Positions 150 through 32,025 of a DNA stretch of 40,954 nucleotides are shown one piece after another (position 1 is the first letter of the stretch; each line of letters opens with the position of its first letter). A program made the position numbers and the translations under genes. Source of the DNA: a virus; IMG/VR virus record IMGVR_UViG_3300026484_000005, positions 1 through 40,954 of that record; one strand, written 5' to 3'. Under the pieces are notes generated by a model that saw only the letters and a program-made list of their open reading frames with translations, was not told the origin of the DNA and made no database searches.

Positions 150-2195
150 ATGATATACAGGAAAAGTTCAGTAAAGGAACTACTTGAGTCTTTAAGACCA
201 AGTGACCCTGTATTCTTAGATACAGAGACAAGTAAACTAGGTAGCCAAATTAGGCTGATACAAATCTATCAAGAGCATTGGGAACAGACTTTACTATTTG
301 ATACAACAGAAGTATCTGTTAGTGTTATATGGTCAATAGTACAGCCCTATAAAATAATTGGTCATAACATAACTTATGACTTTGGCTGTTTTAACAAAGA
401 TATGGAACCTGGAACATTTAAGATGCCTAGGGAGTGGGCTGATACTTTTTACATGAGTAGGTTGAGGTTTCCTGAACTTAATGCTGGTAAAGGTTTTGGT
501 TTAGACTCATGTCTAGCATATGTACTAGGTGAGGACCCATACAAGAAAGCAGGTCTTAATAAAAAAGAAATGCAGATGAGTTTTGAGCGCTTAATGGTAA
601 AAGGTGTTTATGTTGAAGGTCCTGAGGGGTTGTCTGAGCTTACAGATGACCAACTACTTTATGCTGCCATAGATGTTTATGAGTTGCCTAAGTTATACAG
701 AGAAGTAAAAGAATATGAGGACCACTTTGTTCATGTACTAGATAAGTTAACTATTGAGCATATACAAACAGATAGTAAAGGCTTGCCTCTTGACCTTGAT
801 AAACTTACAGCACTTGAAGATGCAGATATAAAACTTATAGCTAACAACACTAAGGCACTTAATGGCCTGAATGTAAACAGTTATTTACAAGTAAGAAAGG
901 CTTTAGGAACTGTAATGTCCTCTGATGAGGAAGCATTATCAATGATACAAAACAGACCTGGAGGGTTAACTGGTATTGCACTAAGAACAAAGATGACAAA
1001 AGGAAAGTTTCCTGCTGCATTACTTCTTGGTTTAAAAACTAAAACACTAAAGGTTGTTACAAGAGAATTTGGTAATGAAACAGTAGTTAACTGTGTTGAG
1101 GACTTACCTGACTCACCTAAAGTTCTGGTTTACTACTATGAGACAAGCTATGTTCATAGTGAGGAAGTTGTAGAGAAAGCTAGGCTTATAAATCAACAGA
1201 GAAAAGCTCTTAAAAGGCTAAACTTTGCTGACAGAGCTAGGAAAGCTTACACAGTTGGAGATGATGGTATACCAAGGATAAGAGGCACATTTAGTCCTCA
1301 TGCTATTAATGGTAGAATTCAGGTTGATAATGAGAACCTTTCACAGTATCCTAGAACAATGAAAAGTATGTGGGGACATCAACCAGGAAATGGTAGAAAG
1401 CTTATATACTCAGATTTTGCTCAGGTGGAACTTAGGATTATTTGTGCTGCTTTACCTGAGATGAATATGTATAAGTCACTTAAGGATGGGATTGACCTGC
1501 ATACATTTGTAGGTAACAACCTTAATCTAAGTGAGGAAGACTTAGCAAACTTACCTGAAGGTATTGAACCTAGGTTCATAGCTAAACAATGTAACTTCTT
1601 GCTACTATATGGTGGAGGTGTATCTAACTTCCAGAGAACAGTTTGTAAGCTTGGTGGTGTTTGGTTTGGAGATGACATAGCTAAAAAGATTACAACTACA
1701 TGGAAAGATATCTTCTCAGACATAAAAGGTTGGCATGCCAAAAATGGTAAGTCTAAAACAATGATGGATATAACAATTAGTGGAAGACCTTATAAGGCGG
1801 GAACAGTAACTGACCTTAACAACATTAGGGTATCAGGTACAGGTAGTGAAATATTTAAACTATGGTTACATTACATTGGAAAATATATAACAAGTCAGTA
1901 TGATGATGTTTATATTGTAAACAGAGTCCATGATAGTGTTATTATAGATGTTCCAGATGATAAAGAGTTATATACTAAACTTAGTAAACAGTTAGTGTTG
2001 ATGGCCCAGACAGCATGGTTTGAGATAACTAAGAATGCACCTCTTAAAGATGTCCCAATGCCTTGTGATGTTGGGGTAGCTAGTAACTGGAAAGATTTAG
2101 AGTATGGTAGAAACTTAGACTTTGAGTACACACTAGAAGGTATGTATATGTATGGTAAAGATTTAGAGGAGGAACTTAATGAACTCAAGTGTTAA
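150..2195 (+). CDS. Family A DNA polymerase with N-terminal 3'-5' proofreading exonuclease
   Basis: Exo motifs 'VFLDTETS', 'GHNITYDFG', 'YAAIDVYEL'. Pol motif A 'DFAQVELRIICA', motif B 'RFIAKQCNFLLLYGG' (Phe at the E. coli F762 position), motif C 'RVHDSVIIDV'. Confidence 0.92.
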   Translation: MIYRKSSVKELLESLRPSDPVFLDTETSKLGSQIRLIQIYQEHWEQTLLFDTTEVSVSVIWSIVQPYKIIGHNITYDFGCFNKDMEPGTFKMPREWADTFYMSRLRFPELNAGKGFGLDSCLAYVLGEDPYKKAGLNKKEMQMSFERLMVKGVYVEGPEGLSELTDDQLLYAAIDVYELPKLYREVKEYEDHFVHVLDKLTIEHIQTDSKGLPLDLDKLTALEDADIKLIANNTKALNGLNVNSYLQVRKALGTVMSSDEEALSMIQNRPGGLTGIALRTKMTKGKFPAALLLGLKTKTLKVVTREFGNETVVNCVEDLPDSPKVLVYYYETSYVHSEEVVEKARLINQQRKALKRLNFADRARKAYTVGDDGIPRIRGTFSPHAINGRIQVDNENLSQYPRTMKSMWGHQPGNGRKLIYSDFAQVELRIICAALPEMNMYKSLKDGIDLHTFVGNNLNLSEEDLANLPEGIEPRFIAKQCNFLLLYGGGVSNFQRTVCKLGGVWFGDDIAKKITTTWKDIFSDIKGWHAKNGKSKTMMDITISGRPYKAGTVTDLNNIRVSGTGSEIFKLWLHYIGKYITSQYDDVYIVNRVHDSVIIDVPDDKELYTKLSKQLVLMAQTAWFEITKNAPLKDVPMPCDVGVASNWKDLEYGRNLDFEYTLEGMYMYGKDLEEELNELKC

Positions 2196-2511
2196 ACAAG
2201 ACCAAGGCAAAAGAAGATTAGACCTTTTACCTTGGGATGCTTTAGACTCAGTAGGTGATGTGCTTACTTATGGTGTTAAGAAGTACCCAAAGCCTGAGGA
2301 AAATTGGAGGGTTAATTCTACTCCTGAGGACATCCCTAGGTATAAAGCTGCATTGCTTAGACACTTTAGTGCAATTCAACAAGGAGAGTTAGTAGACCCA
2401 GAAAGTGGTTTACCTCATATGGCTCATGTAGCTGCAAACAGCTTATTTATAATTGCTTTAGAAAAGAAATTTAAGGAGTCTAAAGATGGCATTATTTCAA
2501 GAGACAGCTAA
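2179..2511 (+). CDS. dATP/dGTP diphosphohydrolase-like protein (phage all-alpha NTP pyrophosphohydrolase family; I recall this as the dGTP_diPhyd_N / DUF5664 type)
   Basis: 'GKRRLDLLPWDAL..VGDVLTYGVKKY...NW' and 'DPESGLPHMAHVAANSLFI' match the conserved blocks I remember for this family. Assigned from memory, not from a search. Confidence 0.55.
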   Translation: MNSSVKQDQGKRRLDLLPWDALDSVGDVLTYGVKKYPKPEENWRVNSTPEDIPRYKAALLRHFSAIQQGELVDPESGLPHMAHVAANSLFIIALEKKFKESKDGIISRDS

Positions 2512-3439
2512 AGAGACAAAGGTTGACTTTGTTGAACTTAAACCAGAACAAACTTACAACATGACAGCACTTATAGATGCAGACACTATTGCCTATGCAG
2601 TTTGTAGTGTATGTGAGATGGGTGATGATGAGACTGGTTATACTATTGACCTTGACTATGCTTTAGAGATAGCAAATGAGAGGATTGATACAATACTTAA
2701 AGCTACAGGTTGTGGTGAAGCAGAGTTACACTTTACTAGAGGTAAAAACTTTAGGTATGCACTAGACAGTGGTTACAAGGATAACAGGTCTACAACAAGA
2801 ATTCCTGAAGGCTTAGGTGAGCTAAAAGAGTTACTTAACAAAAACTATTCAGGTTTAGTTAACACTGACTTTGAAGCAGATGACATGGTATGTATGCTAA
2901 AAAGAGAGTATCCTGAAAAGTATGTACTTGTTGCAGTAGACAAAGATGTTTTATTTGGTGTAGCTGGTACACACTTCAACTACTTTCAAAGAGCAGAAGG
3001 TAAAAACAGATATGGTACTGTTCTTAAAGAAATTAAGATGAAGTGGGTAAAAACAACTGAGAAGGATGCCTTAGCTTGGTCTTATATGCAAGCACTTATG
3101 GGTGACTCAGGTGATGGTATTAAAGGTATTCCAAAATGTGGACCTGTTAAAGCAGTAAAAACTCTGTTTCCTGAAATAGCTAAAGAGGTTAATGAAGCTA
3201 AGAAGGAGTTCAAGAAAAGGACTGAGAAAGATGCTAAGTTATTTGATGACTTAATCCATAAAGATAACATGCTTAAGGATGTTGAACTTACAGAAGAGAT
3301 TCTGTGGGAGAGGCTAAGTAAGGCTTATAAAGATAATGGTCTTGATGATAAACAAGCTATACTTAATATGAGGCTAGTAAACATGCACCAAGTAACAAAG
3401 GAGAGGGAATTATGTCTTTGGACCCAACCAACTATGTAG
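2486..3439 (+). CDS. 5'-3' exonuclease / flap endonuclease (FEN, Pol I 5'-nuclease family)
   Basis: Acidic metal-site blocks 'LIDADTIAYA', 'FEADDMV', 'VAVDKDV'. H3TH-like block 'GDSGDGIKGIPKCGPVKA'. AAGGAG RBS lies 7 nt upstream of the ATG. Confidence 0.85.
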   Translation: MALFQETAKETKVDFVELKPEQTYNMTALIDADTIAYAVCSVCEMGDDETGYTIDLDYALEIANERIDTILKATGCGEAELHFTRGKNFRYALDSGYKDNRSTTRIPEGLGELKELLNKNYSGLVNTDFEADDMVCMLKREYPEKYVLVAVDKDVLFGVAGTHFNYFQRAEGKNRYGTVLKEIKMKWVKTTEKDALAWSYMQALMGDSGDGIKGIPKCGPVKAVKTLFPEIAKEVNEAKKEFKKRTEKDAKLFDDLIHKDNMLKDVELTEEILWERLSKAYKDNGLDDKQAILNMRLVNMHQVTKERELCLWTQPTM

Positions 3440-3789
3440 AAGTTGATGAAGTAGGAGCTTACAAAGTCCTTGCAGAAAAGGTAACTCTTTACAAAGAAAA
3501 ATTCAAGAGGATAGTAGTTGTAGGCAGAGGTGGTTTAAGTGTTGCCCAAGGGCTTGCTTATAAACTTGACTTACCAGTTGTTTCACTTAAAAAGAAACAT
3601 TTAGGTAAACTAAAAGAAACAGATTTGTTTGTTGATGACATTATGTGTACTGGTGAGACTATTGGAAAGATACCTCAACATACTCATGTAGCAGTATTAA
3701 TTCAAAGAAAGTCAGCAAAAGGTTATGCACATAGTGTAGGTAAAACCTATTCAGGGTCAGAATATATTAAATTTAGCTGGGAGGCATAA
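3412..3789 (+). CDS. Small type I purine phosphoribosyltransferase (Gpt/XGPRT-like)
   Basis: 'RIVVVGRGGLSVAQGLAYKLDLP' resembles E. coli Gpt '[21 protein letters not shown]'. PRPP loop 'DLFVDDIMCTGETIG'. C-terminal 'YIKFSWE' resembles Gpt 'WIEQPWD'. Confidence 0.7.
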   Translation: MSLDPTNYVEVDEVGAYKVLAEKVTLYKEKFKRIVVVGRGGLSVAQGLAYKLDLPVVSLKKKHLGKLKETDLFVDDIMCTGETIGKIPQHTHVAVLIQRKSAKGYAHSVGKTYSGSEYIKFSWEA

Positions 3790-3790
3790 A

Positions 3791-4249
3791 ATGAGTGAAT
3801 TTAAAAACGAAAGAAGTATGAAAAGCAATGATAGCACAAGATATGGTAAAGATATAATTAAAAACTTTAACCCTGATGAAGACTTAGTATTTTGGGAGTT
3901 AAGTCCTATTAGCAAGTCAAACAGCTACTGGGTAAATATTTTACATCCAGAGATTTCAGCTCTATGTCCAGTTAGTGGATACCCTGACTCAGGTAAGGTA
4001 ACTGTTGAGTTCAAACCTAATGATAAAACTGTAGAGTTAAAAGCATTCAAACTTTGGATTAACAGTTACAGAGACACAAACATTAGCCATGAAGACTTAG
4101 CTAATGAAATTTACTCAACACTTAAAAAAGGTTTACAGCCAAAAGAGTTATATGTAAAACTTGAAATGATGCCTCGTGGTAATGTTACTACAATTGTAGA
4201 AGTTGGTAACAGCTTCAATACTTGTGTTAAACTAGGTAGGGAGGGTTAG
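3791..4249 (+). CDS. queF: NADPH-dependent 7-cyano-7-deazaguanine (preQ0) reductase, unimodular QueF
   Basis: Catalytic Cys block 'ALCPVSGYPDSG' (B. subtilis 'SLCPKTGQPDF'). QueF motif 'ELKAFKLWINSYR' (E-x-K-x-x-K-L-Y/W). 'HEDLAN', 'PRGNV'. Confidence 0.9.
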   Translation: MSEFKNERSMKSNDSTRYGKDIIKNFNPDEDLVFWELSPISKSNSYWVNILHPEISALCPVSGYPDSGKVTVEFKPNDKTVELKAFKLWINSYRDTNISHEDLANEIYSTLKKGLQPKELYVKLEMMPRGNVTTIVEVGNSFNTCVKLGREG

Positions 4250-4250
4250 T

Positions 4251-4610
4251 ATGGATAAGTTCACTAAAGACTGTCTAAGAACAGAAAGCACACTTTTTAA
4301 TGTTAAGCCTGGTACAGACAGACTACTTCATGCTGCTATGGGTATGCAAACTGAGTCTGCAGAGTTTACAGACATGCTTAAAAAGCATGTCTTTTATGGA
4401 AAGCCTTTAGATAAGGTTAATCTAAAGGAAGAGCTAGGTGACATGCTATGGTATATAGCTATTGCAATGGATGTACTTGACACTACTTTTAGTAAAGAGC
4501 AAAACAGAGTTATAAACAAACTCAAGGAAAGATACTCTGACAAGTTTAGTCAAGATAAAGCAGAGAACAGAGACTTAGAGGCTGAAAGAAGGGTTTTAGA
4601 AGATGAGTAA
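4251..4610 (+). CDS. mazG: MazG-like nucleoside triphosphate pyrophosphohydrolase
   Basis: All-alpha NTP-PPase signature 'ESAEF...KEELGDMLWYIAIAM' (E-x-x-E ... E-x-x-D metal site). Confidence 0.8.
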   Translation: MDKFTKDCLRTESTLFNVKPGTDRLLHAAMGMQTESAEFTDMLKKHVFYGKPLDKVNLKEELGDMLWYIAIAMDVLDTTFSKEQNRVINKLKERYSDKFSQDKAENRDLEAERRVLEDE

Positions 4611-5181
4611 CTATGAGCTTTGGTATGATGTTGAGACAACAGGTCTTGATGTTAATGAGGGAGCAGCAGTTGTTCAATTAGGTTGTATGCTTGTCAAGGA
4701 TGGTGAAATCCTTGACACCTTAAACCTTAAAATTAGTCCTAAATCTTATAACAGAAAAGTAGTTATTAGTAAAAAGGCTATGGAAATAAATGGTTACAAA
4801 GAGGAAGACTTTGATAGTTTTATGTCTGTAGCAGATGCAGTTAATGCCATAACACTTATGGTTAAAGAACATTGTACTGCAAAACCTACTTTGTTTGGTT
4901 ACAATAATAGTACCTTTGATAAGTACTTTATTGAGGATATGTTCAAAGTGTCTAATAGACAATTTAGTGCATTCTTTCACTGGAAACAAATTGATGTTTT
5001 TGAGCTGGTAAAAGCACTAACTGCTATGGGTATACTAGGCAAAACATTTAACCAAAAACTTGGGACAATAGCTAAATCGCTAGAGGTTGAGGCAGAAGGT
5101 GACTTACATGATGCCATAGTAGACATCAAACTAACAAGGGGTATTTACCTCAAACTACAGGAGAAATTAAAATGCAAATAA
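4603..5181 (+). CDS. DEDDh (DnaQ-like) 3'-5' exonuclease
   Basis: ExoI 'WYDVETTGL', ExoII 'GYNNSTFDKYFI', ExoIII 'HDAIVD'. Confidence 0.8.
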   Translation: MSNYELWYDVETTGLDVNEGAAVVQLGCMLVKDGEILDTLNLKISPKSYNRKVVISKKAMEINGYKEEDFDSFMSVADAVNAITLMVKEHCTAKPTLFGYNNSTFDKYFIEDMFKVSNRQFSAFFHWKQIDVFELVKALTAMGILGKTFNQKLGTIAKSLEVEAEGDLHDAIVDIKLTRGIYLKLQEKLKCK

Positions 5182-5645
5182 CAAAACAATTTAAAGCAGA
5201 GGTAGCACACAGATTAGTAGATAGCTACTCAGTAAACTGTCAGAGTATTCATGGTCATTCATACTTATTTAGAGTAACACTTGAAAGTGAGCACTTAGAC
5301 TCAACTGGTATGGTAATGGACTTTGGTGAAGTTAAGGAAAGACTAGGCTCTTTAATTGACTCTTGGGACCACTCATTTATGTTCAACACAAATGATAAGC
5401 TTAAAAATCATTACTTATCAATGCTAGCTGTTGAGCCTCTTAGAATGATAGAAGTTGATTATAACCCTACTGCAGAAAACATGGCTTACCATATCTTTAG
5501 GTCTTGTGTTAAAGCAAGTTTACCTATCAAACATGTAGAGGTGCAGGAAACACTAACAGGATGGGCTAAAGCAGATAGACTTAAACCTTTTGTTGGTGAG
5601 GATGTAACTTACTATAACATCAAAGAAGCTAAAAATGTTTTATAG
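5172..5645 (+). CDS. queD: 6-carboxy-5,6,7,8-tetrahydropterin synthase (QueD, PTPS family)
   Basis: 'FKAEVAHRL...CQSIHGHSY' Zn/His block and T-fold size. Overlaps flanking genes in operon style. Confidence 0.88.
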   Translation: MQITKQFKAEVAHRLVDSYSVNCQSIHGHSYLFRVTLESEHLDSTGMVMDFGEVKERLGSLIDSWDHSFMFNTNDKLKNHYLSMLAVEPLRMIEVDYNPTAENMAYHIFRSCVKASLPIKHVEVQETLTGWAKADRLKPFVGEDVTYYNIKEAKNVL

Positions 5646-6219
5646 AGTTGTAGAGATATTTGATAGTATTCAAGGAGAGGGTAGCTGGGCAGGAATGCCA
5701 GTTACTTTCATAAGACTCTTTGGTTGTAACCTTGACTGTAGTTTTTGTGATGAGCCTCTACATAAAAATCCAGACAACATAAGAGCATATACACTTTCTG
5801 ATTTTGGCATGAGTGACTTTAAAGACCATGTAGTTATAACTGGAGGGGAACCTAGTTTAAATGACTTAACTCTTCTTATAAAATATCTACAAACAATGGG
5901 TAAGAAGGTTGCTATTGAGTCTAATGGTTACAACTATAAAAACTTAGAAGGTGCAGACTTACTTATACTATCACCTAAAGGTGACTTAACTAAAGTGCCT
6001 GAGGGTAATTGGGATGATGTTAAACTACTTGTAGGCCCTGATGGTCTAGACCAAGAAGTTATTGAGGCATACAAGAAGACAGGTGCTGAAGTGTTCCTGA
6101 GTGGAATTAACTATGAAACAGACATAAACCCAACAACACAAGCAAAGGCATTTGAATTGTGTATGGAACACAATTGTAGGTTAAATATACAATTACACAA
6201 AGTTATAGGAGTTAGGTAA
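5635..6219 (+). CDS. queE: 7-carboxy-7-deazaguanine synthase (QueE, radical SAM)
   Basis: 'EIFDSIQGEGSWAGMPVTFIRLFGCNLDCSFCDE' is the QueE N-terminus with the CxxxCxxC cluster. 'ITGGEP'. Confidence 0.9.
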   Translation: MFYRVVEIFDSIQGEGSWAGMPVTFIRLFGCNLDCSFCDEPLHKNPDNIRAYTLSDFGMSDFKDHVVITGGEPSLNDLTLLIKYLQTMGKKVAIESNGYNYKNLEGADLLILSPKGDLTKVPEGNWDDVKLLVGPDGLDQEVIEAYKKTGAEVFLSGINYETDINPTTQAKAFELCMEHNCRLNIQLHKVIGVR

Positions 6220-6932
6220 TGATTAAGGTAATACATATTGCACCCACGGCAAATATGCTTGAGGTTGATACAAAATACAACAATGGGTTAAACATGATAC
6301 TAACTCATCTTGTGCTTAATGATAAAAAGTACAGAGAAGTAGCTGCAAAGCTTCCTGGAGTTAAATACTTAGATAACAGTTTCTTTGAGCTAGGTTACTG
6401 CCTTAAACCAGATGACATGGTAAAAGCAGCTAAGATGGTTGATGCAACAGTACTTATCTGTCCAGATGGTACACTTGATGGAGCAGATTACTTTAGGTCA
6501 GAAGGTTATAAAGTTATGGCTATTCCAAAAACACCTGAACAGTTTGTAGAGTTTATGAATGATAAGAACATTCATCTTGTTGGTGTTAGTGAGGAACACT
6601 TAGACTATAGACACTCTCCAGGAGCTAGGTATGAGTTGTTCAGAGATTATATTGAGCCTATGATGCCAAAAAACAAAATTCACTTATTAGGAGGTACAGA
6701 CAGTATTTGGGAACTAGGTATGCTAAAACCCTTTGATGCTTACATAGAGTCATGGGATAGCTCTGCAGCTATATGGCAGGGACACTTAGGGCATGACCTT
6801 AGTAATATAGCTAGAAAAGATACAACTAGTGTTGATTTTAATGCTAATGTAAACCTTTATAGTTTAACAGTTGTTAAAAATATAGATTTCATAGCTTCAC
6901 TAACAGGAGGTAAACATGCTACTAGTATATAG
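6219..6932 (+). CDS. dpdA: Minimal TGT-fold protein, putative DNA guanine transglycosylase (DpdA-like)
   Basis: Sits between queE and queC. 'LDNSFFELG' aligns with the TGT 'DSGGFQ' catalytic-Asp block. 'KIHLLGGTDSIWELGMLKPF..ESWDSSAAIWQG' aligns with TGT '[34 protein letters not shown]'. No Cys/His Zn subdomain. Confidence 0.6.
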   Translation: MIKVIHIAPTANMLEVDTKYNNGLNMILTHLVLNDKKYREVAAKLPGVKYLDNSFFELGYCLKPDDMVKAAKMVDATVLICPDGTLDGADYFRSEGYKVMAIPKTPEQFVEFMNDKNIHLVGVSEEHLDYRHSPGARYELFRDYIEPMMPKNKIHLLGGTDSIWELGMLKPFDAYIESWDSSAAIWQGHLGHDLSNIARKDTTSVDFNANVNLYSLTVVKNIDFIASLTGGKHATSI

Positions 6933-7590
6933 TGGAGGCTTAGACAGTTCAAGCGCTCTTCATATCTTCAAAGAGGATATTAAGTTAGCAGTTAGTTTTA
7001 ACTATGGTTCTAAGCATAATGCTAGAGAAATTCAAATGGCAAAACTTAACTGTGAAAGGTTAGGTATTGAGCATAAAGTAGTTAACTTAGTAGATGCTTT
7101 TAAGGATATTAAAGGTGCACTACTTAATCCTGATGAAACTATTCCACATGGACACTATGCTGAGTCTAACATGGCCTCAACAGTAGTTCCATTTAGAAAT
7201 GGTATTATGCTAAGTATTGCAGCTGGTATAGCAGAAAGCAATGGTTTAGGCAAAATAATGCTTGCTAGTCATTCTGGAGACCATGCTGTGTATCCTGACT
7301 GTACTCCAGACTTCAACAAAAGTATGTATAAAGCTATTGAGGCTGGTACATCACTAGGTATTGAAGTAGTTATGCCTTTTGAGTCAGTAGACAAGAAGTG
7401 GATTGCTAAAGAAGGTTTAAAGTCAGGTATGGTTCCTTCACAAACATACTCATGCTATGAGGGTAATGAGGTTCATTGTGGAAGGTGTGGAACTTGTGTT
7501 GAAAGACTATGGTCATTAGAAGGCCTTGGGGACAACACAGAATATAAAGATAAAAATTATTACAAAGGAGTTATAGATGGAAGTAACTAG
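6916..7590 (+). CDS. queC: 7-cyano-7-deazaguanine (preQ0) synthase QueC
   Basis: PP-loop 'LLVYSGGLDSS'. C-terminal Zn motif 'CYEG..HCGRCGTCVER'. Confidence 0.92.
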   Translation: MLLVYSGGLDSSSALHIFKEDIKLAVSFNYGSKHNAREIQMAKLNCERLGIEHKVVNLVDAFKDIKGALLNPDETIPHGHYAESNMASTVVPFRNGIMLSIAAGIAESNGLGKIMLASHSGDHAVYPDCTPDFNKSMYKAIEAGTSLGIEVVMPFESVDKKWIAKEGLKSGMVPSQTYSCYEGNEVHCGRCGTCVERLWSLEGLGDNTEYKDKNYYKGVIDGSN

Positions 7591-8146
7591 AGATGAAGCA
7601 ATTGCAGCAATGGAACAGGTAGTAACATACCTAGCTAGAGAGGGTAGAGATGCTCATACAGAAGGTACAGCAGAGAGGTTTATTAAAGGCTGGGACCAAG
7701 ATTGGGGTGAGGGTTATGACATGCCAATTAAATTCACTACTTTTGAGGATGATGGTACTGACCAAATGGTTGTAGAATTAGACATCCCAGTAGTTAGTCA
7801 CTGTTCGCATCACCTTGCACCAATTATGGGTGTATGTCATATTGCTTACTTACCTAAGGATAAAATTGTTGGTTTAAGTAAACTAAACAGAATTGTAGAA
7901 AAGTTTTCAAGACGTCTCCAGGTTCAGGAAAGACTTACAACACAAATAGCACAAGAGTTGCAAGATTTACTTGACCCAAGAGGTGTAGGTGTTCAAATTG
8001 TAGCGGAACATATGTGTGTTAGTTCTAGGGGTGTTAGACACCATGGAGCAAGAACTGTAACTACTAAGCTAACAGGCTTGTTTTTAGAGGATGCAGATGT
8101 TAAAACTGAATTTCTGCAAACTATAAATTCTCATGCAGGAAAATAG
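7577..8146 (+). CDS. folE: GTP cyclohydrolase I (FolE)
   Basis: 'VVSHCSHHLAPIMGVCHIAYLP', 'LSKLNRIVEKFSRRLQVQERLT', 'EHMCVSSRGV'. Confidence 0.92.
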   Translation: MEVTRDEAIAAMEQVVTYLAREGRDAHTEGTAERFIKGWDQDWGEGYDMPIKFTTFEDDGTDQMVVELDIPVVSHCSHHLAPIMGVCHIAYLPKDKIVGLSKLNRIVEKFSRRLQVQERLTTQIAQELQDLLDPRGVGVQIVAEHMCVSSRGVRHHGARTVTTKLTGLFLEDADVKTEFLQTINSHAGK

Positions 8147-8417
8147 TTACATCACTATGGACTTAAAGTCCATAGTGTCATTACTTCATGAGCAACATTA
8201 TACTAATAAAGATATTGGTACTATGCTAGGGGTTACAAAACTTCAGGTTCACTATTATCACAGAGGTAAAACAAAAACACCTAGTGCATTAGTTTGCAAG
8301 GCTATTTATGACAATGTAAGGTTTAATGGTAAGCCTATACTTATTGACTTATACAAAACACCAAAAGAACTGGAGATCCACTATGAACGAGAGCTACAAA
8401 AACTTACTAAAAAGTAA
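8133..8417 (+). CDS. Small helix-turn-helix protein
   Basis: 'NKDIGTMLGVTKLQVHYYHRG' looks like an HTH. Start is uncertain (ATG 8133 overlaps folE; alternative ATG at 8157). Confidence 0.45.
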   Translation: MQENSYITMDLKSIVSLLHEQHYTNKDIGTMLGVTKLQVHYYHRGKTKTPSALVCKAIYDNVRFNGKPILIDLYKTPKELEIHYERELQKLTKK

Positions 8418-9273
8418 ACCTCAAAAAGGTAAAGCTTTTGACCAATTACCTAAAAAGACACTAGAAACATTTGAGGATACTCTTTATGCAGTATCAACTA
8501 AGTTTGATGGGAACCAAATATTTATAACTAAAACAGGTGATAAAATTGAGTTCTTCACTAGTGATTGGAAACAATTTGATATGCCTCTTATAGCAGAGAG
8601 ATACTCTCTGCTACTTAGAGATACTGCTGACTGTATTATAGTCTCTGAGATGAACTATGGGGAAGGCAGGGGAAAACTAGGTGATAGAACTACTGTTCAA
8701 GGAAAGATAACTACTGAAAGAGTTAACTTTAAGAAAGGTCTTGGCTGTTCACTAGATGAGTCTAAAGTTGTTATAAATACATTTGACTTTATTGAAGCAG
8801 ATACAGATAGTCTAACATATGCTCAAAGACATGATAGAGGCTCTACAATAGGTCTATCAATGGTTGACATTAAAGTTATGACTGGTAAACAAGCTGTAGC
8901 TTATGTAAAAGCATTAGTTCATGATGGATGGGAAGGTGGTATGCTTATTGAGCCAGACTCACTGTATCAAGCTGGTAAAAGAGTTAACTATAGTATAAAA
9001 CTAAAGTATCGTAAAACTGCTGATTTACTTTGTGTGGGTACAGAAGAAGGTGAAGGTAAATATGAAGGTATGATTGGTAGTTTAGTTCTACAGGATAAAA
9101 AAGGTAGAATTGTTAAAGTTGGTAGTGGTTTAAGTGATAATTCTAGAGGTGAAGAACCTAGTTATTTTATTGGTAAAGTTATAGAGATTGAGTATGAGCA
9201 AATACTGGATACTTATATTCAACCAACACTTCTAGGTATAAGATTTGATAAAACAAAAGAGGAGACAGATTAA
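8383..9273 (+). CDS. ATP-dependent DNA ligase
   Basis: Adenylation motif I 'STKFDGNQ' (KxDG). 'EGGMLIEP' and 'IKLKYRK' motifs. Start trimmed to ATG 8383, which has GGAG 7 nt upstream, rather than the track start at 8326. Confidence 0.85.
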   Translation: MNESYKNLLKSKPQKGKAFDQLPKKTLETFEDTLYAVSTKFDGNQIFITKTGDKIEFFTSDWKQFDMPLIAERYSLLLRDTADCIIVSEMNYGEGRGKLGDRTTVQGKITTERVNFKKGLGCSLDESKVVINTFDFIEADTDSLTYAQRHDRGSTIGLSMVDIKVMTGKQAVAYVKALVHDGWEGGMLIEPDSLYQAGKRVNYSIKLKYRKTADLLCVGTEEGEGKYEGMIGSLVLQDKKGRIVKVGSGLSDNSRGEEPSYFIGKVIEIEYEQILDTYIQPTLLGIRFDKTKEETD

Positions 9274-9768
9274 ATGGAAGCGTTTATTAGAACTAAGAGG
9301 ATTAATGCAAAACCTATGACTAGGTTAGAGTATAATAAGTTTAGAGGTTGGGAGTTGCCATCAGATGAAAATGGCTCAGATGAAGGTATGCTAGTTGAGT
9401 ATGTAGATGAGGGTAAGCCTAACACAGATGAGTTTAAAGGTTATGTGTCTTGGTCTCCTCTAGATGTGTTTAACAGAGCTTACACACCTATTAGGGGTAT
9501 GACTTTTGGAGAAGCTATTCAAGCAATGAAAGAAGGTCAAAAGGTTTGCAGAGCTGGTTGGAATAGTAAAGGTATGTTTATTTACTATGTTGAAGCTAAT
9601 AAGTATCCAGCTAATGGGAATAAGAAAGGAACAATGGTTGGAGTATTTGAAGATGATATGGTGCCATATCAAGCATATATAGCTATGAAGACAGCCAATA
9701 ATACTGTAGTACCTTGGCTGGCTAGTCAAAGTGATATGTTAGATACCAGTTGGGAGGTAATAGATTAA
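9274..9768 (+). CDS. Two-domain protein: conserved phage N-terminal domain plus C-terminal DUF2829 (Tad2-family) domain
   Basis: C-terminal half 'MTFGEAIQAMKEGQKVCRAGWNSKGMFIYY...AYIAMKTANNTVVPWLASQSDMLDTSWEV' follows the DUF2829 consensus (F-x-E-A...G-x-K-v-x-R-x-G-W ... W-x-A-S-Q-x-D-x-L-x-x-D/S-W). Confidence 0.75.
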   Translation: MEAFIRTKRINAKPMTRLEYNKFRGWELPSDENGSDEGMLVEYVDEGKPNTDEFKGYVSWSPLDVFNRAYTPIRGMTFGEAIQAMKEGQKVCRAGWNSKGMFIYYVEANKYPANGNKKGTMVGVFEDDMVPYQAYIAMKTANNTVVPWLASQSDMLDTSWEVID

Positions 9769-9977
9769 TGAGCAAGATTGTAGTTAGATTACATACTGAT
9801 AAGACATCAGGAGATATTCAGATAAAGATAAAAAGTGAATGTACTCTCAACGAGTTAAGAGCTACTGTAGGTTACTTAATGGCAGGCTTAGCTGCTAACA
9901 CTAATATTGAAACTTTAGAAGCTATGGTAGCTGAAATAAAAACAGACATGGAGAACAATGATGAAAGTAATTCTTGA
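9768..9977 (+). CDS. Hypothetical protein (69 aa)
   Basis: ATG 9768 overlaps the upstream TAA by 1 nt, with GGGAGG upstream. No recognisable motif. Confidence 0.5.
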   Translation: MSKIVVRLHTDKTSGDIQIKIKSECTLNELRATVGYLMAGLAANTNIETLEAMVAEIKTDMENNDESNS

Positions 9978-10569
9978 AGATTATAACAACAGAACAGAGG
10001 AAATGGCAGCAACAGGTGCAGCTATTTGCTACAATAGTAAACCAAAAAATTTAGGTCTTATTAAAACTATGAAAGAGCATAAACACTTAGCTACATTTAG
10101 ATTTGCTTATGCGGTTATTAAGATTGAGGATATTTCAACTATTGGTGCGGTACAAACACTTAGAACAAGTTTTGCAGATATGATAGATAGTGATAGTCAC
10201 TTATGGGAGTCACAAAGATATGTTAAGCAAAGTGAAAGAGAATTTGTTGTTCCACCCTGTGAATATTTAAGGGGAGATGATAAACTAGCGACCCCAGCTA
10301 TATTTAAAGACATAAACAAAATGTCTAAAGATGCTTACAACGAACTCATAAGAATTGGTGTTAGAAAAGAAGATGCAAGATTTGCTTTAACTAGAGCAGT
10401 AACAACAGATTTATATATTGCTGGAAATATGCAGATGTGGAGTCAATTCTTAAAGCTTAGAACAGACAAGCACGCACAATGGGAAATTAGAGCTATAGCA
10501 AACGAGATAGCTTTAGTTTTATCTGAGAAGTTTCCTCGGATTATGCAGGAGTTTGTAGATGGGAACTAA
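9958..10569 (+). CDS. thyX: ThyX-like flavin-dependent thymidylate synthase homologue (divergent signature)
   Basis: C-terminal 'FLKLRTDKHAQWEIR' and 'WESQRY' match ThyX blocks. The canonical RHR block reads 'TLRTSF'. Confidence 0.65.
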   Translation: MMKVILEDYNNRTEEMAATGAAICYNSKPKNLGLIKTMKEHKHLATFRFAYAVIKIEDISTIGAVQTLRTSFADMIDSDSHLWESQRYVKQSEREFVVPPCEYLRGDDKLATPAIFKDINKMSKDAYNELIRIGVRKEDARFALTRAVTTDLYIAGNMQMWSQFLKLRTDKHAQWEIRAIANEIALVLSEKFPRIMQEFVDGN

Positions 10570-10822
10570 CAAGTTTAAAAAGAAAAGTTTATACATTCTA
10601 GAAGTTTTTATTGTAAATGGTGATAAGCTCAAACATGGCTGGAAGAAACAAATGCAAGTAGTTTTAACAACTAAGGGGGTTTTTATTTCAGCTATTGAGA
10701 ATGCTCCTGACTGGACTGACTTTATTAATGGCAAAAAGTATAATGTGGAAGTTAGTGAAGGCTCAGGACATTTGTGGATAGCTAAACCAAGGCTAAGCTT
10801 TTTAGGAGGCTCAAATGGCTAA
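10559..10822 (+). CDS. Hypothetical protein (87 aa)
   Basis: ORF with operon-style overlaps at both ends. No motif recognised. Confidence 0.5.
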   Translation: MGTNKFKKKSLYILEVFIVNGDKLKHGWKKQMQVVLTTKGVFISAIENAPDWTDFINGKKYNVEVSEGSGHLWIAKPRLSFLGGSNG

Positions 10823-11834
10823 AAATATTTTTAATCCAGAATCTACTGAGGTATTTCACCCTATAGTTGGTGGTAATCCTGATGGGATAGCAGACTTTTC
10901 TAATCCCTCAAGAACTGTATATAAAACAATCTGGGATGGTATGTTAGATAGAACTTGGTTCCCCTCTCAAGTAGATTTATCAGGTGATATGCAAGCTATT
11001 CAACACCTTAGTCCTGCAGAAGTTAGAGCTTATAAGTTTGCTTTTGGTAAGTTGATATTTAATGACTCTGTTATAACTAACAGAATTATGGACAACATGA
11101 ACCCTTATATCACAGATCCAATAGCTAATGCTTGTTTAGCAAGGCAAAGTTTTGAGGAAGCACTACATAGTTCCTCATATGCTTATATAGGTGATGATGT
11201 TCTAAAAGAAGCTGGTATGGATAGTAAAGAGATTTATGAACTATTTAAAACTGACCCTAAACTTATTGCACTAGCTAAAGCTATTAATGCTGATTATGCA
11301 ATGTTTGATAAAGAAGGAGAGCCCACTTTTGAGGGTTTGTCTTTAGCAGCTATAGCCAATCTATCATTAGAAGGTGTTAGTTTTCCTGCTGGTTTTTCTG
11401 TAGTTTGGGCACTAGGTTCTAAAATGGTAGGCTCAGCATCTATGATTACTGAGATTAGTAAGGATGAACTAGGTAGTCATTTACCTCTTTATGCAAATAT
11501 CTACAAACATATTAAGCAAGACACTGGTGTTAATGCAGATATAAAAGCCAAGGAAATGCTTATAGCTTCTGTAGAAAGAGAGGTAGACTATTTGAAGTAC
11601 TCTACTGCTGGTGTTATGGGCTTTAATGACCAAGCTATAGACAATCTAATGTACTGGATAGGTAATGACCGCTTTAGAGAAGTAGGTTTTGGAAGAGAGT
11701 TTCCAGTAGCAAACAAAAATGATGGTCTCATAAGGCTGTTTAAGTCTTATAGTAAACTTAATGATACAAAAACTAACTTTTTTGAAGGCACAGTTAAAAA
11801 CTACTCTAAGAAAAAGCTAGACATGGACTTCTAG
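10815..11834 (+). CDS. nrdB: Ribonucleotide reductase small subunit (class I R2 / NrdB)
   Basis: Di-iron and radical blocks 'FNDSVITN' (Asp), 'EEALHSSSYAYI' (E-x-x-H plus radical Tyr), 'NLSLEGVSFPAGF' (Glu), 'EISKDELGSH' (E-x-x-H). C-terminal 'TNFFEGTVKNY' plus an acidic/hydrophobic tail. Confidence 0.85.
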   Translation: MAKNIFNPESTEVFHPIVGGNPDGIADFSNPSRTVYKTIWDGMLDRTWFPSQVDLSGDMQAIQHLSPAEVRAYKFAFGKLIFNDSVITNRIMDNMNPYITDPIANACLARQSFEEALHSSSYAYIGDDVLKEAGMDSKEIYELFKTDPKLIALAKAINADYAMFDKEGEPTFEGLSLAAIANLSLEGVSFPAGFSVVWALGSKMVGSASMITEISKDELGSHLPLYANIYKHIKQDTGVNADIKAKEMLIASVEREVDYLKYSTAGVMGFNDQAIDNLMYWIGNDRFREVGFGREFPVANKNDGLIRLFKSYSKLNDTKTNFFEGTVKNYSKKKLDMDF

Positions 11835-15397: not shown

Positions 15398-17790
15398 TTA
15401 CAATCCTTTACCATATCATCTAATTTCATTTTAATAATTTTCTCAGCTTCTTTTGGGTGTAACTTAACACCCTCAGATTTTTCTATATACTTAATTAACT
15501 GCTTAGCTTCATCAGTTATAATATTTTTAACCACTTTTATATTATGATTAGCATCATCTACCTTAAGTTTCTTTCTAGTATTTTTAAGTATACCCTCAAA
15601 TCTATTTTTAGCTACACCTTTAGGAGTGAAGTACTGTTTATGAATATAGTCTACTGTAGCATCAGTGCCTTTCATAGCATCTCTAACCATTTGCCATTGA
15701 GCATCCTGAACTCTTATTTTACCAGCAAGTTCTCTTCTAACAGCACTAGCTTTAGAACCTTCAGGTAAATTATTCATGACCCTAGGTATATCCTCTGAAG
15801 GTATAGTCTTGCCATCTACTATGAAGGTATCACCTGTTGGTGTCTTTTTGCTATAACCCAACTGAATGGGTTTACTAGTGCTTTTCAATGCTTCCTGAGC
15901 ATTTAACTCCTGCAGTTTTGTTATGTAATCAGTACCAATCTCCTCCTTAACTGACTGAGGTAGTTTCTCAAATGTCTTACTAAGGTCAGCAGAACCTGTT
16001 GGAGTTTTAAGTATATCAGCTAAATCATCCATCTTTCTAAGGTGTTTAGCAGTACTGCTATATGGAACATGCTTACGGGCCATGTTAGCTACTTTATTGA
16101 TAATATACACTAAAGCCTTACCCTCAGCAGTAGTTGCAATAGATGCACCTTCATGACCCATACTAGTGTTTAGAAGCCTAGTAGCATCATCAGTTTTAAA
16201 TGTTGTTTTGAATGAGTCAACTATCTCTTGAAGTCTTTTACCTTCAGGTGTAACAAAGCCCTTGTTTCTAAGATTTGAACTTACTGTCTTCCATGATTTG
16301 TTATCACTAAGTGCTGAACTTATAATACTTTTCTCTAAGGACTGTGTTTTATCAGCACCTACAAGTGTAGAAATATTTTCAAAAATATCATCACCTCCTG
16401 ATACTTTACCAATCTTAGCCATAACTTCCTCAGGAGTACTTTTTGGATTACCTTTGTATGATTTACTTCTTGCAGTAGCTATAAGGTCACCAAGTTTTGA
16501 CTCTCTAACTGTAGCCATTTTACTGTAAAGGTCATTAGTTTCTTTCCACAATTTATACTGACTTTCTGTTAAAGTGTTAGCTAATTCAGCATCAACTGCT
16601 TTACCTAATTCTGTCCATTTATGTTTACTTCTGCTTTTACTTTTCCTAATCATGCTATTGATTATAGGCATTGAGTCTACTAAGTCTTTAGAGTTAATTT
16701 GGGGATTATCTGAGCCTATTAAGTTTCTAAGTTCAGCTACATCTCCTGTAGTCGCCTCATCTAATGCTACCCAAGGTTCAGTTTCAAACTCAGCTTTAAC
16801 TGGTACACTACTTAGTGTATCCTTAACCTCTGAATACTTAGTTGCTACATCATCATATGAAGCTTTTAAATCATCTGCAAAATTAACAATATTAAAGTCA
16901 CTAGCAGCTAAATCCTTTACTGCTTTTTGTGTATCCTGAACCCTTTTGTTTAAGTTCATAACTGTTACTGGGTCACTTGAAGTTGATTGCTTAATACTAA
17001 CACCCCTATCCCCTAGCATGTCAACCATAGATTTTATTTTATTCTCAACACTATTTGACTCACCTGTAGCTTGTCTCCACTTAGTAAAGTTAGAATTAAC
17101 TGTAGCTTCATCTAAGTTGTAGTGTTCAAGCATGTAGTTGTATAGTTTGGTAGCTTTAGTTTTGTCTAACTTGTTAATAACAGCTTGAGTACCAGCACCT
17201 AAACCTCCACCTAACAACATAGCTAGGCCAGTATCTACAGCATCTCTATCAGCACCTATACTTGATGTACCAGCAATTCCAGCTTCTCTGGCACCTATAG
17301 CTAGTGCTGATTTACCTACAGATAAACCACCCAAGAGAATATTAGAAGCTATTTCACCTGCTAATGCTGGACCTTCAAGTTCTTTATCTTTAATATATTG
17401 CTCATTATCTGCTATCCATTGGTCCACTTTAGCTGACTGGCTACCTGTAAGTTTATTATAAAACCCTTCACCAAGATAAGCTACACCTAAGGTGGGTCTA
17501 GCTGCACCTCTAGCCATACCTTGTCCAACTTCACCAACTCTTTCAGTAACATTTACATTAAATGCTCCTCCATAAGTCTCTGGTTGACCAGTTGTAATAG
17601 TGCTTACAGTACCATCAGATACTGTAGGTTCTCTAAGTGTAGAATAGTCTGTAACACCAGATAATTCTGGTGCCTGCATTGATTCCATCTTAGATAAAAC
17701 ACTTGGCTCTTCAGGAGCTTCTAACTCATCCCATAGACTAGCTGAAGCTTCCTCAGCTGGAGCATCTAACTCATCCCATAAACTATTCAT
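15394..17790 (-). CDS. Large internal virion / ejection protein (798 aa)
   Basis: Lies next to the portal. Duplicated acidic N-terminal motif 'SLWDEL(D/E)AP'. Gly/Ala-rich hydrophobic segment 'GGLSVGKSALAIG...LLGGGLGAG'. No enzymatic motif recognised. Confidence 0.5.
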   Translation of the reverse strand: MNSLWDELDAPAEEASASLWDELEAPEEPSVLSKMESMQAPELSGVTDYSTLREPTVSDGTVSTITTGQPETYGGAFNVNVTERVGEVGQGMARGAARPTLGVAYLGEGFYNKLTGSQSAKVDQWIADNEQYIKDKELEGPALAGEIASNILLGGLSVGKSALAIGAREAGIAGTSSIGADRDAVDTGLAMLLGGGLGAGTQAVINKLDKTKATKLYNYMLEHYNLDEATVNSNFTKWRQATGESNSVENKIKSMVDMLGDRGVSIKQSTSSDPVTVMNLNKRVQDTQKAVKDLAASDFNIVNFADDLKASYDDVATKYSEVKDTLSSVPVKAEFETEPWVALDEATTGDVAELRNLIGSDNPQINSKDLVDSMPIINSMIRKSKSRSKHKWTELGKAVDAELANTLTESQYKLWKETNDLYSKMATVRESKLGDLIATARSKSYKGNPKSTPEEVMAKIGKVSGGDDIFENISTLVGADKTQSLEKSIISSALSDNKSWKTVSSNLRNKGFVTPEGKRLQEIVDSFKTTFKTDDATRLLNTSMGHEGASIATTAEGKALVYIINKVANMARKHVPYSSTAKHLRKMDDLADILKTPTGSADLSKTFEKLPQSVKEEIGTDYITKLQELNAQEALKSTSKPIQLGYSKKTPTGDTFIVDGKTIPSEDIPRVMNNLPEGSKASAVRRELAGKIRVQDAQWQMVRDAMKGTDATVDYIHKQYFTPKGVAKNRFEGILKNTRKKLKVDDANHNIKVVKNIITDEAKQLIKYIEKSEGVKLHPKEAEKIIKMKLDDMVKDCK

Positions 17791-30151: not shown

Positions 30152-31282
30152 CTATAGAGGTACATCAATGAAGATTGAACCATAGTTATAACCAGCAACT
30201 TTACCACTTTTGTAGTCTGAATTTTCAGCAACTAATTTAGTTGATTTAGCAGCACACCAAGTTTCAAGACAAGACTCAGAGAATTTACCAAAATCTGTTT
30301 CATCATATTTGTAGTCTGGCATCATACCATTTGCTTTCTGGAATGCTCCAGCACCTAATACAATACCACGAGAAACAGTTGCTGTTCCATTAAAGTTTTC
30401 TGTACCAGTCCAGTTACCATTTGCATCTTTTTGCCTTAAACCAGCAATTTCAACACCAGTGTTGTCATAGTTGTAGTAACCATTTGTCAGAATCTCACCT
30501 TCAGTTTCACCAAAGAATGTTTGAGCTTCAACAATCAAGAATGAACCAATTTTGCCTAGAACACCTTTGATTAAACGGTTGTCATTACCACGAACATCTG
30601 CTGCTTGTAAAACATTACCTGCATTTTTAATGAATTTAGCTTTAATTGCTACATCAATAACAAATAACCATACTGGCTCACCATTTGCAAGTTTGAAAGG
30701 TTTAAGAGGTAAACGCTTAGTAATACCAGCTGGTGTAGTATCAAACCCTGTACCAGTTTTAACTAGTTTTTCAATAGTCATAATACCATCTAAATCAAAT
30801 GTGTGTGCTTCATCTGAACCATCAAAGTTATAACCAAATTCTGCACCTTGTTGAGCTAAGTCAAAGAATGCTTGGTCTTCAGAACGAACCCATAAATCTG
30901 CAAGTTTTGAACGAGAGTCAGAGTGCTCATTAATAGATAAGTCACCAATCTCAATACCATCAAATTTTGTTCCATTGTCAACTACATATCTATAGTCTGC
31001 AACTGTTAAAGTGTCAGAGAATTTTTTCTTTTGTTCACCAGTACCTTTTGCTGTAGTGTTACCTTTAACAGGTTTACCACTTAAGTTACCATCAAAATCA
31101 AAAGTAACTGTATGCCCTTTTGAAGCACTAATATCATTTTCAACTAAAATGATAGAGTCAAATGTTTTACCTTTATAAGGTGCCCAAAATGAAGTTGCAG
31201 ACTTTTGAAAAAGTCCTTCTGCCATCCAAGCTTTTCTTACTAAAGCAGAACCAATATCTACCTTTCCTGTACCATCAGCCAT
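30152..31282 (-). CDS. Major capsid protein (HK97 fold, resembles the N4-gp56 family)
   Basis: 'VRKAWMAEGLFQKSATSFWAPYKG...IILVENDISASKGHTVTFDFDGNLSGKPVKG' matches my memory of the N4-gp56-type capsid N-terminus. Follows the scaffold gene. Uses the CGT Arg codon seen in the other apparently highly expressed gene (34356-34892). Confidence 0.75.
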   Translation of the reverse strand: MADGTGKVDIGSALVRKAWMAEGLFQKSATSFWAPYKGKTFDSIILVENDISASKGHTVTFDFDGNLSGKPVKGNTTAKGTGEQKKKFSDTLTVADYRYVVDNGTKFDGIEIGDLSINEHSDSRSKLADLWVRSEDQAFFDLAQQGAEFGYNFDGSDEAHTFDLDGIMTIEKLVKTGTGFDTTPAGITKRLPLKPFKLANGEPVWLFVIDVAIKAKFIKNAGNVLQAADVRGNDNRLIKGVLGKIGSFLIVEAQTFFGETEGEILTNGYYNYDNTGVEIAGLRQKDANGNWTGTENFNGTATVSRGIVLGAGAFQKANGMMPDYKYDETDFGKFSESCLETWCAAKSTKLVAENSDYKSGKVAGYNYGSIFIDVPL

Positions 31283-32003: not shown

Positions 32004-32025
32004 AAAACAGGCTTAGTTTAAGCTT
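32001..32025 (-). terminator. Weak hairpin plus U-tract overlapping the terL stop codon
   Basis: Minus-strand AAGCUUA-AAC-UAAGCCU (7 bp including one G-U pair) followed by GUUUUUG. Confidence 0.3.

Follow-up and report, generated by a model that had tools for sequence, protein, structure and literature searches.

The window considered here is the whole stretch of 40,954 nucleotides (nt) at positions 1 to 40,954 of the IMG/VR virus record IMGVR_UViG_3300026484_000005, and represents the nearly complete, ~41-kb genome of an uncultured tailed phage with ~35% G+C. As judged from sequence, it encodes FolE (GTP cyclohydrolase I; 7577..8146), QueD (6-carboxytetrahydropterin synthase; 5172..5645), a short radical S-adenosylmethionine (SAM) form of QueE (7-carboxy-7-deazaguanine (CDG) synthase; 5635..6219), QueC (7-cyano-7-deazaguanine (preQ0) synthase; 6916..7590), a unimodular QueF (NADPH-dependent reductase converting preQ0 to 7-aminomethyl-7-deazaguanine (preQ1); 3791..4249) and a bare triosephosphate isomerase (TIM) barrel of the DpdA3 family, which is a predicted guanine/7-deazaguanine transglycosylase (6219..6932). 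All six genes lie on the + strand within one operon inside the replication module. The operon is compact, with 11 genes, and overlaps of 11 nt (QueD/QueE), 1 nt (QueE/barrel), 17 nt (barrel/QueC) and 14 nt (QueC/FolE) suggest translational coupling and a single operon. The locus is a DpdA3-type 7-deazaguanine system with a preQ1 branch; the type of system, and its use against restriction, are already known.

The biosynthetic genes appear to be short, diverged phage versions with readable catalytic signatures. FolE matches PF01227 with 192.5 bits (E 5.7e-57, cut-off 27) and phrog_2197 (E 2.3e-62), and carries the CSHH and HxC..RG motifs. QueC matches TIGR00364 with 152.1 bits against a cut-off of 150.3 and PF06508 with 162.6 bits, and has the SGGLDSS PP-loop and the C...CxxCxxC zinc motif. 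QueF, for which a gene caller places the start at 3818, matches the unimodular equivalog TIGR03139 with 91 bits against a cut-off of 86.9 and PF14489 with 72.6 bits. It retains the catalytic Cys59 in LCPVSGYPD, D66, a HED triad including H100/E101 and the NADPH-binding segment ELKAFKLW, which agrees with the consensus E(S/L)K(S/A)hK(L/Y)(Y/F/W) quoted for QueF (PMC10516641). QueD matches PF01242 (PTPS) with 97.6 bits and presents the CxxxHGH motif as NCQSIHGH, and QueE matches the radical-SAM family PF04055 with 35.7 bits and presents CX3CX2C as CNLDCSFC at residues 31–38. We infer the functions of these two proteins from their retained motifs, from QueD and QueE models being their best matches and from their position in a que operon, and on these grounds the assignments stand. 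Thus, the full gene set from GTP to preQ1 that an earlier note had read from the letters of this DNA is real at the coordinates it gave, and the QueF that it had called clear lies above its equivalog cut-off with all catalytic and NADPH-binding signatures in place.

The open reading frame (ORF) between queE and queC encodes a 237-residue protein that finds no match in Pfam, NCBIfam, PHROGs, PADLOC or the PDB sequences, and a family profile does not change this. At E ≤ 1e-3, 92 metagenomic homologues are found, 50 of which form the alignment (A1) used for AlphaFold and for the profile comparisons. The AlphaFold model (pLDDT 95.5, pTM 0.91) contains eight strand/helix units and predicts a bare (β/α)8 barrel. 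In a Foldseek comparison with the PDB, the matches are generic TIM barrels with TM scores of 0.45–0.59, among which the tRNA-guanine transglycosylase (TGT) of Z. mobilis (2pot) ranks second (E 4.9e-5, TM 0.54); because generic barrels dominate, this ranking cannot alone prove a relationship to TGT. In the comparison with BFVD, the third-ranked match is the 259-residue phiST protein M4SLA5 (E 6.4e-11, TM 0.76/0.70), which has the same length as CGPG_00065, the prototype of the DpdA3 subfamily (PMC10516641). Lower in that list are annotated phage queuine tRNA-ribosyltransferases (the DpdAs of Mufasa8 and Bella96), together with a protein from Vibrio phage nt-1.

BLASTP alone detects no relationship between the barrel and the DpdA3 prototypes. 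At the profile level, hhalign aligns A1 end to end with CGPG_00065 of phiST (96%, E 4e-9, 221 columns), and with immuto26A_65, the annotated DpdA of Flavobacterium phage immuto_2-6A (98.3%, E 1.4e-14, 193 columns). The barrel also has the size and context of DpdA3 proteins, being a small single domain (~230–300 residues), viral and adjoined by FolE, QueD and QueE, and the profile matches assign it to this family. A local alignment of the barrel family with a profile of classical Queuovirinae DpdAs covers 154 columns (E 0.017) and brings LDNSxFE/LDSGAFS, HxLG/HGFG and SWDSS/SVDSS into register. As a control, the classical DpdA profile aligned with E. coli Tgt over 16 columns (E 0.022), at LDSGAFS/TDSGGFQ; by this yardstick, the barrel would be as near to DpdA as DpdA is to TGT. 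The barrel family profile gives no signal against the single E. coli Tgt sequence, and we take this comparison as insensitive rather than negative, because the profile of classical DpdAs fares no better there. The authors who defined DpdA3 reported an HHpred match of 98.8% to PF01702 for phiST (PMC10516641). In our searches, the barrel family has a single, faint Pfam match, to DUF6610, the DpdA4 family (E 0.15), and the classical Queuovirinae DpdAs on record have no Pfam match either. We therefore file the barrel under DpdA3, and only distantly under the TGT superfamily, since it has no PF01702 match, zinc site or Ins8 subdomain. The description of this ORF as a TGT fold in the earlier note accordingly survives in the sense of a distant superfamily, not of a canonical TGT or DpdA. 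Its suggestion of a DpdA-type transglycosylase beside the que genes is borne out by a DpdA3-type barrel, which belongs to the subfamily of phages that replace all G.

In an alignment of 38 sequences including both DpdA3 prototypes, 14 positions are invariant (P9, L28, Y38, D52, N53, D83, P103, R137, H155, L157, G158, E165, D180 and N221). Of these, D52, N53, D83, R137, H155, G158 and D180 are at C-terminal strand ends, and the acidic ones are on the catalytic face of a TIM barrel: D52, D83 and D180, invariant in all 38 diverse members, stand at the ends of β3, β4 and β8. The profile alignment at E 0.017 places D52 and D180 on the Asp motifs of classical DpdA. D52 is likely to be the general acid/base, D83 to recognize the base and D180 to be the nucleophile; their counterparts in S. 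Montevideo DpdA are D95, D130 and D256 (PMC10164549). Classical DpdAs share the predicted base-exchange chemistry with the window barrel, with three Asp-containing motifs in register, but differ in architecture. They comprise 300–400 residues and, like TGT, have a structural zinc site (CXCX2CX22H), and their large Ins8 subdomain together with Ins1 forms a positively charged DNA-binding crescent that holds duplex DNA (PMC10164549), whereas the window barrel has none of these elements. Classical DpdAs modify 0.01–30% of G, in sequence motifs. The isoelectric point, considered as a stand-in for DNA binding, proved uninformative, with a family median of 5.6 against 5.97 for E. coli Tgt.

The closest characterised system is that of immuto_2-6A, whose DNA carries formyl-preQ1 (fdPreQ1) at 100% of G (PMC10516641). 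Within 10 kb, this phage encodes QueD, QueE, a phosphoribosyltransferase (PRTase), FolE, an NTP pyrophosphohydrolase, DpdA3, DpdN, a P-loop kinase, QueF and PolA; its QueC lies ~11 kb upstream of the cluster in the 30-kb stretch examined. The window shares FolE, QueD, QueE, QueC, QueF, the DpdA3 barrel, a Gpt-like PRTase, a MazG-superfamily NTP pyrophosphatase and PolA with immuto_2-6A, and the two barrels have the LDNSxFEL, HxLG and xDxS motifs in common. However, neither the DpdN formyltransferase nor the P-loop kinase is present in the window, whose QueF is unimodular (152 residues) rather than bimodular (306 residues). The window barrel has 237 rather than 264 residues and has diverged beyond the reach of BLAST, and the genome is that of a 41-kb podovirus rather than a 160-kb myovirus. 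The DpdA3 barrel, the Gpt-like PRTase (31% identical to phiST CGPG_00045) and FolE/QueD/QueE are also shared with phiST, which carries 2′-deoxy-7-deazaguanine (dDG), as well as with the CP220 group, which carries 2′-deoxy-7-amido-7-deazaguanine (dADG), and a MazG-type gene beside FolE is common to the window and these DpdA3 phages. By contrast, the phiST and CP220-group phages lack QueC and QueF, so that their pathway stops at CDG, and phiST has the DpdL decarboxylase. The same preQ0/preQ1 genes also accompany classical DpdA1 or DpdA2 together with QueF (Cellulophaga phiSM, Vibrio VH7D and Streptococcus Dp-1) and the bacterial DpdA/DpdB systems.

Two further genes of the cluster, both unrecognised in the earlier note, whose named genes were otherwise right, encode putative nucleotide-pool enzymes. 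The gene at 3412..3789 (+ strand) encodes a mini Gpt-like 6-oxopurine PRTase of 125 residues, identified by motifs and profile matches: the phosphoribosyl pyrophosphate (PRPP) motif LFVDDIMCTGET, an RGG motif and a C-terminal YIKFSWE. The single sequence gives weak Pfam and NCBIfam matches (E 5e-4), and a profile of 12 phage homologues matches the purine PRTase of P. horikoshii (1vdm; E 4e-23) and E. coli xanthine-guanine phosphoribosyltransferase (1a95; E 3e-14). The PRPP-binding loop and the RGG, VDD..TG.T and W/Y-I-x-F-x-W-E motifs are common to the window protein and these enzymes, whereas ~17–20 residues of the flexible catalytic loop, kept in longer phage homologues, are missing from it. 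The gene at 4251..4610 (+ strand) encodes a MazG-like nucleoside-triphosphate pyrophosphohydrolase (PF03819, 27.8 bits; phrog_229, E 2e-40). MazG-type genes occupy the same place in four related contigs (L005, L093, L096 and L098; contigs and loci used for comparison bear L numbers), and MazG-superfamily genes stand beside FolE or DpdA3 in phiST and immuto.

A word-indexed homologue search with the window PRTase returned three proteins only, and tblastn with the phiST homologue CGPG_00045 found 34 of 50,697 phage records. These comprise 15 Campylobacter CP220-group phages (dADG, 100%), five of the Cellulophaga phiST group (dDG, 100%), four Flavobacterium immuto phages (fdPreQ1, 100%), five Vibrio Queuovirinae phages in which the PRTase is fused to the N terminus of FolE, two Brevundimonas phages in which FolE and a hypothetical gene flank it, with a dNMP kinase and ribonucleotide reductase alongside, and three others. 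In this database, the gene is almost confined to 7-deazaguanine phages. Besides 3412–3789 of the window, the PRTase occurs at L002 28218–28646, L088 14980–15375, L089 6821–7723 and L090 6983–7468, and it is known from all three lineages with proven 100% replacement of G. The word 'phosphoribosyl' is absent from the main text of both key papers on 7-deazaguanine phages, and the Gpt-like PRTase seems to be a marker of such systems that has gone undiscussed. Its role is most likely guanine salvage, in which guanine and PRPP would yield GMP and then GTP, the substrate of FolE; this is the simplest reading because of the FolE fusion and the Gpt-type fold. In three loci (L024, L025 and L030), the PRTase is preceded by an N-terminal extension that resembles DUF3310 by eye, and in L097 a DUF3310 gene (8277–8519) lies just upstream of it.

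The barrel family has 3,481 representatives at 50% identity and E ≤ 1e-3 (1,290 at E ≤ 1e-10), and is essentially confined to viral contigs: 405 places were confirmed in IMG/VR, compared with three contigs of metagenome-assembled genomes (MAGs), probably mis-binned, in a set of one genome for each of 185,579 prokaryotic species. We scanned 80 IMG/VR loci with small purpose-built hidden Markov models (HMMs). Near the barrel in the 24 loci with 6 kb or more of sequence to each side, FolE is found in all 24, QueE in 22, QueD in 18, the Gpt-like PRTase in 14, a T4 gp1-like dNMP kinase in 13, QueC in four and QueF in three; among all 80 loci, QueC occurs in 13 and QueF in six. Most relatives are therefore of the phiST type: their pathway ends at CDG, and the gene just upstream of the barrel encodes a DpdL-like T-fold protein. 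The window belongs to a minority podophage clade with a short barrel (219–245 residues) and QueC, and has the full preQ1 branch. Within this clade, QueF is present in L008–L011, L013, L014, L092–L096 and L098, and not in L005, L012, L016, L017 and L097.

Other arrangements were seen around the barrel family. In a large clade with barrels of ~280 residues (L018–L086, and Aeromonas phage Ahp1 at L001 7549–9445), the DpdL-like T-fold gene lies directly upstream, and the next gene downstream of the barrel encodes a T4 gp1-like dNMP kinase (PF21448) in 37 of the 80 loci. Four barrel representatives (P0251, P0259, P0261 and P0264) are fused to a C-terminal DUF3310, and one protein of 1,114 residues (P0244) combines PolA, a flap endonuclease and the barrel, possibly through an error in gene calling; these fusions do not settle the mechanism question. 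In L093, the QueD product (8217–9404, 395 residues) combines an HNH_3 endonuclease domain with PTPS, probably by insertion of a homing endonuclease or by fusion.

The window is almost devoid of CpG, with 94 occurrences against ~1,230 expected (odds ratio 0.08). GpC is normal (1,294), AG/CT is elevated at 1.37 and CA/TG, at 1.08, hardly so. CpG was found 28 times against 218 expected at codon positions 1–2, 20 against 291 at positions 2–3, 28 against 365 at positions 3–1 and 19 against 241 outside the listed genes. The loss is alike in all position classes and therefore indicates pressure on the DNA rather than codon choice. Among the clade contigs, the CpG ratio is 0.03–0.51 in the 12 with QueF (six at ≤ 0.08; a thirteenth, L098, has 0.03) and 0.38–0.79 in the eight without it (Mann–Whitney p = 2e-4, uncorrected for phylogeny). 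Near-total loss recurs in L013, L092, L093, L095, L096 and L098, and the ratio is 0.81 in Vibrio phage VPMS1, which lacks the cluster, 0.67 in phiST and 0.49 in immuto. Streptococcus phage Dp-1, which has low-level 2′-deoxy-preQ1 (dPreQ1) and a classical DpdA, has a ratio of 0.95. We therefore rejected preQ1 as a general cause of CpG loss, and preQ1 alone does not explain it. A host effect is possible, because one CpG-poor contig is binned with a Spirochaetia MAG (SABI01, Spirochaetia INTA.CYC.084).

The window also avoids GATC (nine sites against 82 expected, z −8), and CATG occurs 94 times against 168 expected. VPMS1 (L091), without the cluster, has three GATC sites against 85 expected and avoids GATC equally. 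We therefore discarded GATC avoidance as evidence of modification, and regard it as a trait of the lineage rather than a consequence of the modification genes.

We consider it probable that the cluster is a self-sufficient 7-deazaguanine DNA-modification system in which the barrel puts preQ1 in the phage DNA. By homology, FolE, QueD, QueE and QueC would convert GTP to preQ0, and QueF would reduce the free base preQ0 to preQ1; the substrate of phage QueFs is free preQ0, and phages that encode QueF have DpdAs that insert preQ1 (PMC10516641). The DpdA3-family barrel would then exchange guanine for preQ1 in the DNA by a TGT-type double displacement, and the resulting dPreQ1-containing DNA would be expected to resist G-dependent restriction enzymes. 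If the three characterised DpdA3 lineages are a guide, replacement of G is probably high to complete. Guanine is what a transglycosylase releases, so the PRTase would most likely salvage the displaced guanine to GMP and thereby refill the GTP pool drained by FolE; the MazG-like enzyme probably pares the (d)GTP pool or clears non-canonical NTPs. Because the gene set is that of immuto minus the formyltransferase, we predict dPreQ1 as the base. The replacement of G by a 7-deazaguanine put forward in the earlier note is supported by the DpdA3 family, by FolE in 24 of 24 loci and by the likeness to immuto_2-6A, and is a prediction from genes. The absence of tRNA genes and of a classical tgt from the window also speaks for it.

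Several observations weigh against this proposal. The phage is known from metagenome contigs only, no DpdA3 has been shown to be active and heterologous tests in E. coli failed (PMC10516641). In the profile searches that the earlier note had suggested, FolE, QueC and QueF lie above their cut-offs and QueD and QueE below the equivalog ones: QueD scores 85.6 bits with TIGR03367 (cut-off 89.25), and the best NCBIfam models of QueE are all QueE at 57–84 bits, with TIGR04508 at 84 against a cut-off of 240. None of 38 barrel-family members matches PF01702 at E ≤ 5 with HMMER. The barrel has two cysteines, neither conserved, and thus no zinc site; it has ~25 residues between β8 and α8 and lacks the Ins1/Ins8 DNA-binding surfaces. 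The avoidance of GATC and CpG shows that selection on sequence persists, unlike what complete protection would entail, although VPMS1, without the cluster, shares the GATC avoidance. Furthermore, an unrecognised decorating enzyme may exist among the unannotated small ORFs, because immuto_2-6A, for which dPreQ1 had been predicted, carries a derivative. The final base could on this account be a decorated preQ1 or another 7-deazaguanine, or preQ0 itself if QueF were inactive. We regard such an outcome as possible and unlikely: the core genes of immuto_2-6A are the same, and fdPreQ1 was found where dPreQ1 had at first been expected (PMC10516641), the window holds several unannotated small ORFs, and a fusion gene in the relative L094 suggests lineage-specific decoration. 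However, tblastn with DpdN and the P-loop kinase of immuto_2-6A and with phiST DpdL finds nothing in the window at E ≤ 0.1, and no DUF3109 (DpdM), formyltransferase, amidotransferase or methyltransferase appears when the other ORFs are searched with Pfam. No homologue of Gat-QueC or ArcS is found in these searches either, and QueF has every catalytic and NADPH signature and scores above its equivalog cut-off. The absence of a decorating enzyme reported in the earlier note thus holds for the known ones.

A further rival to insertion of preQ1 into DNA differs in mechanism, not in outcome. The barrel might swap the base on a free nucleotide, such as dGMP formed from dGTP by the MazG-like enzyme, or the PRTase might make a preQ1 nucleotide, followed by phosphorylation and incorporation by PolA, with guanine recycled by the PRTase. 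On this reading, DpdA3-type barrels in general might not use duplex DNA as a substrate. The other complete base replacements known in phages all run through the dNTP pool. The barrel lacks nucleic-acid-binding insertions and a zinc site, and its companions act on nucleotide pools: the PRTase accompanies it in 14 of 24 loci, and MazG-type genes occur in phiST, immuto, L005 and the window. The next gene downstream encodes a dNMP kinase in 37 of 80 loci and in Ahp1, and the immuto cluster includes a kinase. A modified-dGTP route was once proposed for Campylobacter phages (PMC6884629). Nevertheless, we hold this pre-replicative route to be decidedly unlikely: the window has no recognisable nucleotide kinase, the TGT superfamily is known only for action on polynucleotides, the kinase adjacency may reflect the common ancestry of T4-like contigs and the authors who defined DpdA3 favour post-replicative insertion (PMC10516641). 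The PRTase does not discriminate between the routes, because it is also fused to FolE in phages with a classical, post-replicative DpdA. Finally, the que genes might serve only the queuosine of host tRNA and so aid phage translation, leaving the DNA unmodified. This was the older reading for phages without a recognisable DpdA (PMC6884629), and the function of the barrel is a prediction. We judge it highly improbable, as the barrel gene stands between queE and queC with overlapping start and stop codons, its family is that of phages with proven modified DNA and is essentially viral (405 IMG/VR matches against three MAG contigs), and the cluster lies inside a DNA replication operon. Moreover, all phages tested that have the pathway and a DpdA-type gene have modified DNA (PMC10516641).

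If the prediction of preQ1 in the DNA is true, no earlier DpdA3-type system would have been predicted to end with unmodified preQ1. The host of the system is a small podovirus of 41 kb whose 11-gene operon would be easy to synthesise and test, and the minimal barrel of 237 residues, with its high-confidence model, is a candidate for settling how complete G replacement arises, before or after replication. Given the 3,481 cluster representatives, an answer on mechanism would cover many environmental phages. The parts that a specialist would not expect are the purge of CpG, which accompanies QueF in the clade, and the PRTase signature.

The remaining genes of the operon, all on the + strand, are related mainly to replication. 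A family A DNA polymerase (150..2195; PF00476 and PF01612, as recorded for the identical gene) is the first gene of the replication/modification operon, and the order of PolA followed by the cluster recurs in the relatives L005 and L092–L097. It is followed by a stand-alone PF18909 domain protein (2179..2511; PF18909, 91.4 bits, E 3.8e-26; phrog_801), found in 11 of the 12 QueF-bearing relatives scanned; PF18909 is the N-terminal domain of phage dATP/dGTP diphosphohydrolases, and no MazG-type EExxE motif was seen in this protein. In the QueF-bearing close relative L094, a 398-residue fusion of Amidoligase_2 and LMWPc (3018–4214) lies between PolA and the PF18909 gene; absent from the window, it is a candidate for decorating the preQ1 amine. 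A 5′–3′ exonuclease/flap endonuclease (2486..3439; phrog_107, E 1.5e-47; NF011544, E 8e-21) precedes the PRTase, and a DnaQ-like 3′–5′ exonuclease (4603..5181; PF00929, 54.9 bits; phrog_192) is embedded in the cluster. Straight after FolE, a conserved ORF of 94 residues (8133..8417), helix-turn-helix-like by eye, has no family match in Pfam or PHROGs, and is found directly downstream of FolE in all close relatives with 34–48% identity.

ENA contig ERZ27262648:k141_255023 (40,968 bp) and a Logan assembly contain an identical sequence, the source samples being ERZ27262648 and SRR7968107, and megablast of the region against 50,697 phage records gave no DNA-level match. The portal is 53–55% identical to those of Vibrio phage VPMS1, Edwardsiella KF-1/ETP-1 and Pseudoalteromonas PH1, which are podophages of 41–43 kb, and on this basis the window is assigned to the KF-1/VPMS1-like podophages. 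The VPMS1 genome contains no 7-deazaguanine genes, and tblastn with the barrel matches none of VPMS1, KF-1/ETP-1 and PH1; thus, the 7-deazaguanine cluster is an accessory module of this lineage. In the window, we found no tRNA genes, Rfam family or preQ1 riboswitch, family searches revealed no classical tgt, and promoter and terminator scans gave counts that match chance.

The replication and nucleotide-metabolism arm occupies the + strand from 150 to ~14,800 and from 34,300 to the end. Downstream of the 94-residue ORF, this arm encodes ThyX (9958–10569; PF02511) and a ribonucleotide-reductase small-subunit-like protein (10815–11834; PF00268); the window has no ORF of sufficient size for the large subunit. 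The structural arm lies on the − strand and includes the portal (17790–19616), the major head protein (30152–31282) and the large terminase (32024–33523). A 164-residue protein (9274–9768) with an N-terminal extension of ~75 residues and a C-terminal Tad2-like (Thoeris anti-defence 2) domain (PF11195, 88 bits) is a probable anti-defence gene product encoded within the replication operon.

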